Assembly (NCBI RefSeq): GCF_056712565.1
Contig: NZ_CM160072.1
DNA: 64,000 nt
Reading direction: 5' to 3' (one strand)
A program made the position numbers. This document shows, in pieces, positions 18,001-24,000 of this stretch. The first letter of the stretch is position 1, and every line of letters starts with the position of its first letter.

Positions 18001-21000
18001 CGGACACCTTTGCAGTGGTGAATTTCCGGTTAATCCAGAACCAGTCTTATCCGTTTGTGATGAGTGTGGATGTCGCCAGCGATTCTTTTATGCAGACGGC
18101 GGAGATGCTGCTGGAGAAGAACGCAACGCTGACTATCTGGCAGGGTGTCATCCCGCTGCGTTATGTCACCGGCGTGGTGGCGGGCTTTGGCATGCAGGAG
18201 AACAACGGCTGGCAGATGCGTTATCACCTGCGTATTGAGCCGCCGTTATGGCGGTGCGGGCTGCGGCGGAACTTCCGTATCTTCCAGCAGCAGGATATCC
18301 GGACGATATCGGCCACATTACTGAACGAGAACGGCGTCACAGAGTGGACGCCGCTGTTTTATGAGGACCATCCGGCGCGGGAGTTCTGTGTGCAGTACGG
18401 GGAGTCGGACCTGGCGTTTCTGGCGCGGCTGTGGGCGGAGGAGGGGATTTTCTTCTTTGAGCGGTTTGCGGCGGACAGTCCGGAGCAGAAGCTGACGCTG
18501 TGCGACGATGTGGCGGGGCTGTCACAGGCGGGGGAGCTTCCGTTTAACCCGGACACATCGGCAGGAGCGGAGACGGAGTGTGTCAGTATGTTCCGTTATG
18601 AGGCGCATGTCCGCCCGTCATCGGTGCAGAGCCAGGATTACACGTTTAAGGTGCCGGACTGGCCGGGGATGTATGAGCAGCAGGGTGAGAGCCTGAACGG
18701 ACAGCTTGAACAGTATGAAATATTTGATTATCCGGGAAGGTACAAGGATGAACAGCACGGCAAGGATTTCACGCTGTACCGGATGGAGAGCCTGCGCAGT
18801 GATGCGGAAAAGGCCACAGGGCAGAGTAATTCGCCGAAGCTGTGGCCGGGGACGTGGTTTACGCTGACGGGGCATCCGCAGAAGATGCTGAACCGTGAAT
18901 GGCAGGTGGTACAGAGCATTCTGTCAGGAGACCAGCCGCAGGCGCTTCACGGCAGCCAGGGGAGAGGAACCACGCTGGGAAATCAGTTAGAGGTGATACC
19001 GGCGGACCGGACGTGGCGTCCACGGCTGCAAAGCAAACCGAAGGTGGACGGGCCACAGAGCGCCATTGTCACCGGGCCTGCGGGAGAGGAAATCTTCTGT
19101 GATGAACATGGCCGGGTACGGGTGAAGTTTCACTGGGACCGTTATCACGGGATGACGGAGGAGAGTTCGTGCTGGGTGCGTGTGTCGCAGGCGTGGGCGG
19201 GGCCGGGATTTGGTAATCTGGCGATACCGCGGGTGGGCCAGGAGGTGATTGTTGATTTTCTGAACGGGGACCCGGACCAGCCGCTGGTCATGGGCCGGAC
19301 GTACCATGAGGACAACCGTTCGCCGGGGAGCCTGCCGGGGACGAAGACGCAGATGACGATACGGTCGAAGACCTATAAAGGAAGCGGCTTTAATGAACTG
19401 CGGTTTGAAGACGCCACGGGCGGTGAACAGGTCTATATCCACGCGCAGAAGAACATGGATACGGAGGTGCTGAATAATCGGACGACGGATGTGAAGGCTG
19501 ACCACACGGAGACCATTGGTAACGACCAGAAGATAACGGTGGGGTTGGGCCAGACGGTGAATGTGGGGAGCAAAAAGGAAGGTGGTCATGACCAGAAAGT
19601 GACGGTAGCGAACGATCAGCATCTCACGATAAAAAATGACCGGCACAAGGTTGTAAATAACAACCAGACAAGCAAGGTGACGGGAACTGATACCGAAGAA
19701 GTCGTCAAAAAACAGAGTATTAAAATAGGTGATAATTACGAACTGAAAGTTGAGCATGGTACAAATATCATATCTGGGGACAGTATTGAGCTAATTTGTG
19801 GGCAGGGAGAGAGCGGGACTTGTTCCATAAAACTGGAGAAAACAGGAAAGATAATAATACGGGGGACGGAGTTTCTATTTGAGGCTACCGGTCCTGTAGA
19901 TATTAAAGGAAAAGATATTCATCTGAACGGATAGTGCAGGATATAAAACATGGTGATTGTATTTGCTTTATACGCCTGTGAATCACCATTTGTGATTGTT
20001 TAAATTAATCATAGCATGACTTATTCAGGAATCAATAAGCATGATAGAAATGAAAAATAACACGCCATTTCCTTTGTTGTCATTTGAAAAATATGGTCGT
20101 TATGGTCTTTTGTTTGATGTTATTGCTATTAAAATGTCATTGCGAATTAAAAATGGATTTTATGCTGATCTTGCTGAGTTTCAAAAAGAATTGTCCATGT
20201 CTGATGAATACTATGGGGAGTCTGAAACAAGTAGTCTAAAATCTGAAACAGACTTAGTTCTTTGTAAAAGAAATACAGATATTCACGTGACAGGTAGTGC
20301 TCATGCCCCTTCAGGGGATAAGTCTCAGTGGAAGGCTTGTGTGAGGGTTAATAGTTTTTCTAAAGAACTGAGTTTATCTGGTGTCCGCTACTTACAATAT
20401 GAGCGAAATCGTTGGCAGATGAGCTTACCAGATAAAATTATTAATGTTCCTCTACGCTATGAGCTTGCTTACGGTGGTATTTGGCAACCAGATGGTATGG
20501 AGAAATTGGTTTTTTCAGCAAACCCTGTAGGTTGTGGATATTATCCTGATATTTCTCAACTTAATACAAGTTGTCAATATAAACTCCCACAAATAACCAG
20601 CTCTGCTTTGTCAGAAAACGCTACCATTTTTAATGGGGAATCTGACTTTTTTCAAGGTGTTGGCCCTGTATCTCGATGGTGGAAAAGTCGCCTCCAGTAT
20701 GCAGGAACCTACAATGAAGTATGGCGTGAAAAGCGCTATCCCTATTTGCCGGATGATTTTGATGAGCGGTTCTACAATAGTGCTCATCCGGATATGATAT
20801 ACACGGGGTTTCTCTCTGGCGATGAAAACATCTCTCTTGAAGGTTTTTTTAAATTTGAACAGGTTGTTAAGACAAAATTGCCAGGTATACGACCTGTACT
20901 TATATTAAAAACCAAGCATAATACATCACATATGTTCTTACCTGTTGCGGATACAATGGTTATCGATTTAAGTCGACAGGAAATATACCTTACCTGGAGA

Positions 21001-24000
21001 TTAACAATACCTGATTTTTTTGGAATGAAAGAAGGAGTGCTGAGTTGTATTATTCCTGAATGTATAGGGAAAAAATATTATGGGTAACTATCATATCGGG
21101 GATGGTGAATGTAGATTTAGAGTCGTGTGTTCTTCACCAGATGTATGTGAAGTAGGAGGTTACAAGGTTCCTTTTGACAGTTACCAGACTTTAGATAGTG
21201 AAAGACAGTACAGTTCAACGGTATGGGCGCGTGGATGCAGAGCTTTAAATGTTGGTTCAGTGATTGCTGGAACTCAAAGTAATGCCGGTAAAGGTGTCAT
21301 ATCCGGTACATCTCAAGGAACGGGTGACTGTGTTATTTTAACGGGAAGTCCGACTGTAACAATAGAAGGGAAACCTGTTGCTTATCATGGTTCAGTTGTT
21401 GGGATTAATAACCACAACTGCCTTGGTAAATTGTATACCAAAATAAAATCACCAATGATTTCTGTCATTGATAGAACTTTTAATTATGAAAGGACTGCTG
21501 AAGTAATACACGATTTACTGCTTCTGAAGGATCTCCTCTCTGTTGGTAATATTTTTGACGGAGATATTTCACCTGAGGTTAAAAATGATTTATTTCAAAT
21601 AAAAGATCCTGACCAATCATGGGGGGAGTTTTTTTCAATAAAGAATATCAGAGAATCTCTCAGGAATGGTATTGAAGGAGATAAATCTCAGATCAGAGAA
21701 TGGTTTGGAGAGAACACACTTACTCAAATGGGGAATGGAGCAATCACCACTTTACATGGTGTGGCGGATTTAGCCTTAGTTACATTCGATGCTCTGTTAG
21801 ATACGGCAACGGCAACGGTTGCTTGCCCGATAGGCGAAGATGGGTTATGTGAACAGGCAAATATAAATTTAAATGAAAAAGAACAGGCTTTATTTAATAT
21901 TAGTAATTCATTGATAAATGGGCAAGCATGGGATGCACTTAAAAAAATGATAATGGATACAAATAATGGTGATCAGATTGCTCTGGTGCATTTTGCCAGC
22001 TTTTTATGGGGCTTTATGATACCCGCAAAAATACCAGAAGAAAATATCTCTGGGAAAGTATTTGTAGAGCCAGTAGTTTTAGAAGGTGGTGCTGGTGGCA
22101 ATTGGACAGTATTTGATGAGGTTTTAGATTCAAATGTAATAAAGCAATTGACTTTAACAGGCTGTGGAGCGGCCTGTGGGGAAATGTTGCTTAGGGATAG
22201 GTATATTTTTGTCACGCAAAATGTAATTGGAACAGAATTAACATCTATGACGTCGCTGGCAAACAAGCTTAATAAATTTGATGTCGGCTGGGAAGGGAAT
22301 GCAGTGAGCGAATCTAGTTTATATGCCCTCAGTAATACTGGTTCATGGGGAGCAATGATGTGGGATTCTGGAAGTAAAGTAGGGCATTGGGTACTTGTTA
22401 AGGGTGTTGATGATGCTGGGAATGTGATAATATATGATCCATATCAAGGGAGTCGATATCTGATGACTGAACAGGAATTTAAGGAGGTATGGAATGGGCA
22501 TAGTGTTTACAAACCATAATATTGATTTGTTATCGGTTGAATTTGATGAGATTACAAAAAATTGTAATTACACTTTTAGTGTAGATGGAGAGACGGCTAT
22601 CTTTACTGCTAGAATATCAATAATAAGAAATATAAAGGGAATTAAATATAGCGAAGAACTTGATAAATTTATAATGTCAATAATGCCATTGCAGCCTAAA
22701 GTATCAAAAATTTTGGGAGGTGTTACTTGGGATTGTATTTGTGGTAAGGAAGTTGGATTTCCTGTGAGATTAATTGGTAAGTGAAGGGTGGTGAGGTATT
22801 TCTATATTTTTTTCGTGAAAGTCTTTAAAACTGAAATTATCTTGTTGGGAGCCCAAGGTGAGATCATAAAACGTATTATTTTATAAATATTGTTATGCAG
22901 GGAAAGGTCAAGTAATGCTGCTTTTTTGTACTAAATAATTCGCATTTTATGTTCAATAATTGAGGTGTTCCTTATTACCTAAAGCTGTTTTTCATTGCTT
23001 ATACATGATCAAATACTCATTGCCTAATTAAGGGGGACAAAATGGAACTTAAAAAATTGATGGAACATATTTCTATTATTCCCGATTACAGGCAAGCCTG
23101 GAAAGTGGAACATAAATTGCCAGATATTCTATCTGTTAACTATTTGCGCCGTTATTTCTGGTGCATAATGCTGGGAAGATATAGAGGATTTGGGGAAACA
23201 CATCTCGATTTTTTGAAGTGATATGGTGATTTTGAAAATGGTATTCCTGTTCACGATATCATTGCCAGAGTTGTATCCTGTATCAGTCCTGCAAAATTTC
23301 ATGAGTGCTTTATTAACTGGATGCGTGACTGCCATTCCTCAGATGATAAAGATGTCATTGCAATTGATGGAAAAACGCTTCGGCACTCTTATGACAAGAG
23401 TCGCCGCAAGGGAGCGATTTATGTCATTAAAATCCGTCTTCATATTATTTGCGATGTCCCTGATGAACTTATTGATTTCACGTTTGAATGGAAAGAGCTG
23501 AAGAAATTATGCATGGCAGTCTCCTTTCGTTCAATAATAACAGAACAAAAGAAAGAGCCAGAAATGACGGACAGATATTATAGCATTTCTGCTGATTTAA
23601 CCGCAGAGAAGTTCGCCACAGCGAACCGAAATCACTGGTACGTGGAGAATAAGCTGCACTGGCATCTGGACGTGGTAATGAATAAAGACGACTGCAAAAT
23701 AAGAAGAGGAAATGCAGCAGAATTATTTTCAGGGATACGGAAGATCGCTATTAATATTTTAACGAAAGATAAGATACTCAAGGCAGGGGCAAGATGTAAG
23801 ATGTGAAAAGCAGCTGCGGACAGAGACTACCTCGCGTCAGTCCTTGCGGGGGCGGGCTTTCGTATTCTTGCTCTGCAAGGGATGATAAAAAGTGCAACTT
23901 TATTCCACGCAGCTATTTAGACAGCGTACAGTAAACAAACGAAAGTTGTTATTTCAATGGTCAGGGCAAGAGCATGAAGTGTTTACTACACACTATGCTC

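Follow-up and report, generated by a model that had tools for sequence, protein, structure and literature searches.

The vgrG locus and its cargo

The stretch of 64,000 nt analysed here (the window; contig NZ_CM160072.1 of RefSeq assembly GCF_056712565.1) contains an Escherichia coli type VI secretion system (T6SS) cluster, in which the spike gene vgrG drops sharply in GC content inside its 3' end. Very probably, an AT-rich effector cassette of ~3.3 kb that was acquired horizontally starts at this composition break and is joined in frame to a conserved vgrG core. E. coli SF-468 (NZ_CP012625) matches the window region at 100% identity, and close matches are also present in many genomes of extraintestinal pathogenic E. 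coli (ExPEC)/B2, including UTI89, S88, IHE3034 and ATCC 11775.

On the plus strand, hcp is followed by vgrG, a DUF2169 adaptor gene, cpe1, cpi1, a degenerate ISAs1 element, two small genes and an ISAs1 fragment; the structural genes (tssB/C/E/F/G and others) lie upstream of hcp-vgrG on the opposite strand (Table 1). The VgrG protein has a core of the gp27/gp5 type, matching TIGR03361 over residues 8-519 (E = 1e-180), with the Pfam domains Phage_GPD (34-327), Phage_base_V (385-451) and Gp5_trimer_C (468-542). A second Gp5_trimer_C match, at residues 545-603, belongs to the tail. The gene directly 3' of vgrG, as in the DUF2169 (Tap2)-type vgrG loci, encodes the adaptor, which is named 'DUF2169 family type VI secretion system accessory protein' in RefSeq.

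The effector itself bears a PAAR-like domain (Tox-PAAR-like, PF13665, residues 15-115, E = 1.4e-11), followed by a Peptidase_C39 match at residues 352-474. Residues 337-479 match PDB entry 9l5u (E = 2.6e-94), whose molecule name is 'DUF4150 domain-containing protein'. The window protein is one residue off RefSeq Cpe1 (WP_000528852.1) and contains Cys362; C362A is given as the inactive Cpe1 mutant in the study of this toxin (PMC12136450). The cpi1 gene lies directly 3' of cpe1, and its counterpart in close relatives, whose sequence across this region is 99.1-99.5% identical to the window, is WP_000513317.1, annotated as Cpi1. By sequence, the cargo is the published Cpe1/Cpi1 pair. The pair was described in ATCC 11775 (PLoS Biol 2025, PMC12136450) from the same locus, 99.4% identical to window 17100-20500 and with the same arrangement. 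According to that study, Cpe1 mediates T6SS-dependent killing through cleavage of GyrB and ParE and is neutralised by Cpi1, in an assay with the T6SS de-repressed by deletion of hns (PMC12136450). The study differs from the present analysis in that it concerns the toxin mechanism and its relatives; its main text does not contain the term 'DUF2169' and mentions VgrG three times, none of them about a composition break.

Table 1. Coordinates of the features in and around the vgrG locus (positions in the window).
Feature	Position	Strand	Evidence or remark
hcp (tssD)	17213-17731	+	TIGR03344, E = 3.4e-62; annotated Hcp in RefSeq relatives; upstream of vgrG in the hcp-vgrG operon
vgrG, whole gene, 660 aa	17952-19934	+	
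vgrG conserved GC-rich core, aa 1-555 (gp27-like hub, oligonucleotide/oligosaccharide-binding (OB) fold, proximal beta-helix)	17952-19615	+	
Tract of 921 nt shared in identical form with the orphan vgrG of this genome	18408-19328	+	0 mismatches; vgrG nt 457-1377
Zone of inferred crossovers between core background and cassette-linked sequence	19329-19403	+	Informative-site patterns
vgrG variable AT-rich tail, aa 556-660 (distal beta-helix, tip); first part of the cassette	19616-19934	+	
DUF2169 (Tap2-type) adaptor gene	20041-21087	+	All homologues match Pfam PF09937
cpe1: PAAR-like (DUF4150) N-terminal domain, linker, papain-like cysteine protease toxin domain	21080-22519	+	
Nested second junction in cpe1, aa 313-318, between the delivery part and the toxin tip with immunity gene	22018-22031	+	
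cpi1 immunity gene	22494-22784	+	RefSeq 'cysteine protease immunity protein Cpi1', WP_000513317.1
Degenerate ISAs1-family (H-repeat) element	22898-23806	+	NF033564 ISAs1 transposase match; annotated as frameshifted ISAs1 transposase
AT-rich stretch kept whatever the cassette, outside the swappable unit	23807-25390	+	
Hypothetical gene, 167 aa	24035-24538		Within the AT-rich stretch
PFL_4695-family integrating conjugative element (ICE) protein	24632-25120		TIGR03765 match
Second ISAs1 fragment	25146-25340		NF033564 match
yafV	after 25390	-	

Composition break and limits of the cassette

In 300-nt windows, the GC content is 0.57-0.63 over 18050-19550, falls to 0.43 at 19550-19849 and reaches 0.31-0.33 at 19850-20299. 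The overall values are 0.583 for the vgrG core, 0.404 for the tail (the last ~320 nt) and 0.373 for the cassette, with 0.37 for the DUF2169 gene, 0.39 for cpe1 and 0.31 for cpi1. At third codon positions (GC3), the core has 0.72, the tail 0.40 and the cargo genes 0.23-0.29 (0.28 in the DUF2169 gene). The maximum-likelihood change-point is located at 19572 for all sites within vgrG, at 19629 over 17952-22800 (GC 0.583 before, 0.375 after) and at 19683 for GC3 only (0.72 before, 0.35 after). The log-likelihood ratio of the GC3 shift is 22.4, against a mean of 2.4 and a maximum of 11.8 when the codons were shuffled within vgrG, and none of the 5000 shuffles reached the observed value. The T6SS structural block (1-16000), taken in 320-nt windows, has a mean GC of 0.566-0.567 with a standard deviation of 0.037 and a minimum of 0.462, no window being as low as the tail. 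The C-terminal part of vgrG and the island behind it are thus lower in GC than both the core and the structural genes.

The initial annotation had noticed a break in the 3' end of vgrG and had placed it at ~19560, only 12 nt from the all-site estimate. The break is real and abrupt. The same annotation had let the AT-richness run through the adaptor, toxin and immunity genes, which is correct; the low GC goes on beyond these genes, to ~25350, next to yafV.

A vgrG gene with the window-type core is present in ~690 of 5426 complete E. coli genomes. The whole module occurs in 301 of the 5426, directly after hcp in 211 of these, as in the window, which leaves about 90 genomes with another arrangement. 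The context of related DUF2169 loci was reached via DUF2169 homologues and the contigs encoding them. Other E. coli vgrG alleles and paralogues match the core at 92-98% identity as far as position 19457, 19615 or 19641; beyond these points all homology is lost and the cargo is different. Homology to the hcp-proximal vgrG1 of strain LF82 ends at 19615, where two hypothetical proteins follow. The limit is 19641 both for the orphan PAAR-vgrG island located between yncG and yddH, in which an M35 peptidase comes next, and for the main-cluster vgrG of VTB96929v, which continues with DUF4123, three DUF3304 and a Tle1-like phospholipase. In E. coli 042, homology already ends at 19457 and DUF4123 with an effector follows. 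A single core is thus combined with four cargo sets (Cpe1, Tle1, two hypothetical proteins, and DUF4123 plus effector), to which the orphan islands add M35, and the C-terminus differs between alleles that share the core and co-varies with the cargo. Allele alignment gives the result predicted from the composition, and the E. coli alleles compared are not colinear to the stop codon irrespective of cargo. A single universal breakpoint was ruled out, since homology stops at three or more different points, according to which alleles are paired.

The cleanest allelic replacement at the same chromosomal site is that of VTB96929v, and it is directly observed. The flanks in this strain match the window at 97.4% (14000-19641) and 98.1% (22923-26290) identity; in between, a 5.6-kb DUF4123/DUF3304/Tle1 cassette occupies the slot of the 3.3-kb Cpe1 cassette of the window. 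From these flanks and the replaced segment, the span of 19500-22800 that had been marked initially is almost exactly one swappable cassette. On the 3' side, five comparison loci (L002, L004, L005, L006 and L015) become homologous again from 22898 or 22923, where the left end of ISAs1 lies, and L002 and L003, which are orphan loci, have an extra copy of this end upstream of PAAR. In 330 of 335 genomes, the cassette has an identity of at least 99%; it is always single-copy and chromosomal.

The tail shares no DNA homology with the other E. coli vgrG tails compared. At the protein level, VgrG residues 556-660 are 50-58% identical to a DUF2169-linked VgrG of Hafnia paralvei and 44-48% identical to that of the metagenome contig L011, but only 11-37% identical to the alternative E. 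coli alleles. The core behaves in the reverse way, with 94-100% identity to E. coli alleles up to their breakpoints and 63-94% to the Hafnia and metagenome cores. From this incongruence, the class of the tail follows the class of the adaptor and not the species. Compared with the loci of Hafnia, L011 and Escherichia sp. HH26CH, the identity is 51-58% for the tail, 56-58% for DUF2169 and 60-61% for the PAAR-like residues 1-131. Homology across the DUF2169 loci then ends where the toxins differ (Rhs, Ntox15 or Cpe1); those in Hafnia and L011 carry Rhs effectors. When a 128-residue tail was compared with a set of 5.8 billion proteins, the matches were fragments from E. coli and a further one with 47% identity, with no full-length VgrG among them.

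The near-equal divergence of tail, adaptor and PAAR-like domain is directly observed and would fit a delivery unit of three interacting parts. The spike tip might be the docking part for the adaptor and the PAAR-like effector. By analogy with published work on other systems, we infer that the VgrG tail would physically specify the cargo and determine which effector loads. If a tip works only with its own cargo, tip, adaptor and PAAR-like domain would be inherited as one unit, as is proposed here.

A promoter and terminator scan of 19300-23100 yielded more promoter-like sites than shuffled sequences, as expected of AT-rich DNA, and no convincing terminator between vgrG and the DUF2169 gene. Two comparison alleles have a disrupted vgrG. 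In Eco_23-2678 (L001, 4001-5982), the gene is inactivated by a frameshift near the core/tail junction, and in M00057 (L006, 9853-14295), it is split by an IS3/IS30 insertion at the equivalent of window position 19336.

Recombination in the core and movement between loci

The core under the cassette differs by up to 4% between Cpe1 strains. Between SF-468 (the window) and FDAARGOS_1257, 59 of the 85 mismatches over 12.8 kb fall within 18000-19400 and only 2 in the cassette. In these ungapped mismatch profiles, the columns of L001 and L014 were left out, being invalid 3' of their indels. Strain LF82 (L004, 9853-20004) carries two tandem vgrG modules in the main cluster, with the Cpe1 module second, in the order hcp, vgrG1, cargo, ISAs1 remnant, PAAR, vgrG2 (Cpe1 type), DUF2169, cpe1, cpi1 and ISAs1. 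The 54 sites that distinguish LF82 vgrG1 from vgrG2 were used to type the core, and a mosaic is directly visible. The FDAARGOS_1257 allele is of the vgrG1 type to nt 1446, except at nt 900 and 1029, and of the vgrG2 type from nt 1452 (window 19397-19403); it looks like the expected product of one crossover deleting the first module of an LF82-like tandem. The window allele is a finer mosaic, of the vgrG2 type from nt 1437, with a crossover interval of 19329-19388. The window arrangement may also derive by deletion from an LF82-like tandem of two vgrG modules.

The main vgrG of SF-468 and the orphan vgrG of the same genome (L024:2349-4754, minus strand) are 1.36 Mb apart and are perfectly identical over the 921 nt of 18408-19328. 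Within the same interval, the window differs from other Cpe1-type alleles at 38-41 sites. Taken together, the identical tract and these differences indicate gene conversion between intragenomic vgrG paralogues. Comparable similarity between main and orphan copies within a genome is found in VTB96929v and LF82, but not in 042. Recombination within vgrG is therefore visible in mosaic sites, a single-crossover allele, a conversion tract and the clustering of single-nucleotide polymorphisms in the core. The composition break itself was rejected as the crossover site: the informative sites put the crossovers 200-300 nt upstream, so that the break represents the end of usable homology. The initial annotation was right to look for the recombination breakpoint within vgrG; the crossovers lie in the core at ~19329-19403.

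The cassette, or parts of it, also move between loci. In strain A30, the segment with tail, DUF2169 and PAAR-like domain is located in the orphan locus (96.4% identity over 17943-22031). After 22031, it continues with a different toxin tip, a putative immunity gene and 135 nt of the ISAs1 left end, which abuts a displaced remnant of the old vgrG 3' end, starting at the equivalent of 19312 and followed by its former M23 cargo. O145 strains have kept only 22018-22929 (the Cpe1 toxin domain and cpi1, 99.7%), behind a truncated orphan vgrG, in what appears to be an orphan toxin/immunity relic. The tip switch of A30 and the O145 remnant thus reveal a second, Rhs-like junction in cpe1 at residues 313-318 (L020:7431; L021:6001). 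Allele replacement, incongruent similarity and this movement between loci support the earlier proposal that the VgrG C-terminus was exchanged with its cargo by recombination within vgrG.

ISAs1 (H-repeat) sequence lies 3' of every E. coli vgrG cassette examined, with the same element end in the five comparison loci, and a left-end fragment is also present 5' of the PAAR gene in orphan and second-position modules. Besides the two stretches of the window, ISAs1 sequence was located at L002:6403-6557, L004:14081-14586 and L005:15472-16002. A group II intron reverse transcriptase is found in or next to the ISAs1 sequence 3' of two cassettes, in 042 (L005 17121-18371) and in HH26CH (L007 5130-6452). 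The associated cassettes differ, being of the DUF4123 type in 042 and of the DUF2169/Ntox15 type in Escherichia sp. HH26CH.

In the proposed mechanism, the cassette would span roughly 19616/19642 to 22897/22922 and is predicted to encode the last ~105 VgrG residues, the DUF2169 adaptor, Cpe1 (a PAAR-like domain with a papain-like GyrB/ParE protease) and Cpi1. Homology for recombination would be provided by the conserved vgrG core on the left and by the ISAs1 end on the right. With such homology arms, one cassette could take the place of another, join it in tandem, be lost by deletion, or pass between the main T6SS cluster and the orphan vgrG island. Crossovers take place in the conserved core just upstream of the break, which is itself the point where homology stops.

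Several observations weigh against this reading. Part of the GC drop is no signature of transfer, as GC1 and GC2 fall as well, and in Hafnia and L011 too, the DUF2169-type tail exceeds the sequences on either side in AT content. The GC3 of the tail lies between those of the core and the cargo. No donor lineage was found, the nearest non-E. coli DUF2169 relatives being 56-59% identical, and a search among plasmids gave no evidence that any of them carries the cassette, the sole match being one of 175 nt at 71% in a Salmonella plasmid; composition and incongruence are what the acquisition itself is read from. Events may have begun either with a tail swap or with the import of a complete vgrG, the core of which was homogenised later.

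The latter course is possible, if somewhat doubtful. A whole PAAR-vgrG-cargo island with a foreign vgrG would have entered, and the 5' 1.4-1.6 kb of this gene would later have been overwritten by gene conversion from resident vgrG copies, which makes the GC break the limit of homogenisation and not the site of a tail swap; the difference from cassette exchange is one of event order only. The Cpe1-type vgrG of LF82 is a separate, complete gene in tandem, with its own PAAR and ISAs1 fragment upstream, conversion between paralogues is seen in the SF-468 tract and in VTB96929v (with the first 800 nt nearly identical), and DUF2169-type vgrG genes, with a core of 64-88% identity, stand at the syntenic position in Hafnia and L011. 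However, core backgrounds that clearly differ carry the same cassette, which is also present at two loci, FDAARGOS_1257 resembles a single crossover, and no E. coli copy with a divergent foreign core was found, every cassette match being at least 95% identical and located behind a standard core. The varied backgrounds and the FDAARGOS_1257 allele mean that core-anchored exchange certainly occurs, whatever the first event was.

It is improbable that the cassette is mobile by ISAs1 transposition, as a composite or one-ended element, instead of by homologous recombination in vgrG. The constant presence of ISAs1 on the 3' side, the left-end fragments 5' of PAAR in orphan islands and in the second LF82 module, and the A30 segment ending in the ISAs1 left end against the old vgrG would all be in agreement with such a mechanism. 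The ISAs1 copies adjacent to cassettes are, however, frameshifted or truncated, and the main cluster has no insertion-sequence end at the left junction. This junction is in frame in vgrG, at a homology limit that varies with the allele pair, and the informative sites reveal homologous crossovers and conversion tracts.

It is very improbable that the AT-richness results only from the amino acids of the distal beta-helix (Lys, Asn, Ile, Thr, Asp), with no exchange: the fall in GC1 (0.61 to 0.50) and GC2 (0.42 to 0.32) does attribute ~40% of the GC fall of the tail to amino-acid composition, and the Hafnia and L011 tails have 0.42-0.44, below the 0.51-0.54 of their core and GC-normal cargo, but GC3 makes up the larger part and drops further here (0.32) than in Hafnia and L011 (0.07-0.10), low GC runs on through three further genes, the alternative E. 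coli tails have a GC of 0.49-0.54, and the DNA homology of the alleles stops at exactly the same point, so that amino-acid composition as the sole explanation is largely refuted by the GC3 shift and the homology breakpoints.

As a tentative and rather unlikely extension, the vgrG core and the ISAs1 left end might be paired, portable homology arms, forming an integron-like scaffold for the exchange of T6SS effector cassettes. If so, gene conversion between main and orphan copies would maintain the capacity of the left arm for recombination between loci separated by 1.36 Mb, and the degenerate ISAs1 copies would be retained as the right arm and not be mere debris. Judged from titles and abstracts, none of the papers retrieved for vgrG together with ISAs1 appears to treat this pairing in E. 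coli.

Some other features of the window were also recorded. The divergent tssB/hcp intergenic region (16550-17150) is very AT-rich (GC 0.25-0.34) and is presumably a bidirectional promoter region; GW-AmxH19 has an indel in it. The two small AT-rich genes between the two ISAs1 fragments (24035-25120) are kept whichever cassette is present and may be the remnant of an older island. At ~33830-36300, lafU and a 5'-truncated flhA-like pseudogene form a remnant of the lateral flagella (Flag-2) cluster. A second low-GC block of the window is due to a lambdoid prophage at ~48540-64000 (integrase, exo/bet/gam, O and P replication proteins, ninE, rusA, antiterminator), integrated next to a tRNA-Thr gene, beside proA.

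Relation to known systems

The organization is comparable to that of vgrG islands in related Enterobacterales. In the T6SS-1 of Pantoea and Erwinia (De Maayer et al. 2011, PMC3235180), the N-terminal part of vgrG has a core-like GC content of 63.7% and the C-terminal part with the island 46.6-47.9%, and the VgrG C-terminal extension was said to belong to these islands. In comparison, the window has 0.58 in the core, 0.40 in the tail and 0.37 in the cassette, and hcp and vgrG are present in both clusters. The Pantoea/Erwinia proteins have longer, 'evolved' C-terminal extensions, recognised from GC alone, whereas the window has a short beta-helix tip of 105 residues and its breakpoints were mapped by allele alignment and informative sites.

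In Agrobacterium (Wu et al. 2021, PMC8546570), the vgrG loci have a recombination hot spot in the COG3501 domain, with a conserved TIGR03361 core followed by a polymorphic C-terminus that confers effector specificity. They include tap2 (DUF2169) and DUF4150 effectors; a PAAR-like DUF4150 domain is present in every DUF2169 locus and is frequently a fusion with the toxin (PMC8546570). According to experiments cited in that work, the link between the VgrG C-terminus and the DUF2169/DUF4150 cargo has been demonstrated experimentally in Agrobacterium (PMC8546570). The gene order of tail, DUF2169, PAAR-like toxin and immunity gene is identical in the window. Bondage et al. 2016 reportedly also dealt with the specificity of the VgrG C-terminus in Agrobacterium. 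The differences concern the organism and the toxin, which is the protease Cpe1 here and the DNase Tde2 there. In addition, the right boundary in the window is an ISAs1 end, conversion between main and orphan copies is directly visible, and the specificity of tail for cargo, experimental in Agrobacterium, is only derived by comparison here.

In Vibrio cholerae (Unterweger et al. 2014, Kirchberger et al. 2017), as outlined in PMC6730261, structural genes are >95% and effector modules <30% identical. The modules are 6-13% lower in GC, are exchanged by transfer and homologous recombination, and leave old immunity genes behind, according to the same outline (PMC6730261); a related study of V. cholerae T6SS effector modules is that of Thomas et al. 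2017 (PMC5527308). The O145 remnant, in which cpi1 is retained, is a relic like these old immunity genes. The loci and adaptor families are not those of V. cholerae, and the GC contrast in the window is larger, about 20 points. For E. coli itself, 'vgrG islands' with diverse toxin modules were reported by Ma et al. 2018, as described in papers citing that work.

The architecture of the locus also parallels that of the Rhs elements of E. coli. These elements, studied by the Hill laboratory in the 1990s and in later work, have a GC-rich core, an AT-rich C-terminal tip with an immunity gene, an H-repeat (ISAs1) and displaced orphan tips. Similarly, a GC-rich conserved 5' part is in frame with an AT-rich replaceable 3' tip in the window, together with an immunity gene and ISAs1/H-repeat sequence, and a displaced 3' fragment is left downstream after replacement, as in A30. 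The yncG/yddH site of the orphan island is, we presume, that of RhsE and ydcC in K-12. However, neither Cpe1 nor VgrG has a Pfam match to an RHS/YD-repeat core, and the polymorphic junction is in the spike gene and not in the toxin gene, although a Rhs-like junction is present in cpe1. The locus thus works like a Rhs element as far as the replaceable tip is concerned, and is not a member of that class.

The phenomenon was already known, from Pantoea/Erwinia in 2011, Vibrio in 2014 and Agrobacterium in 2021; the characterisation of the cargo dates from 2025. Current understanding is unchanged by the findings at this locus. What is added here is incremental: the exact boundaries in this E. coli system, the consistent right boundary at ISAs1, the 921-nt conversion tract and the single-crossover allele. 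In annotation work, a GC break within vgrG reliably shows where an effector cassette starts. The boundaries mapped here (around residue 555 of VgrG and residues 313-318 of Cpe1) suggest, for engineering, points at which chimeras could be built. Biologically, the locus clearly exemplifies the re-arming of a contact-dependent weapon by bacteria: the machine genes do not change, a single cassette with tip, adaptor, toxin and antidote is swapped, and the conserved sequence of the spike gene offers recombination its handle for this exchange.

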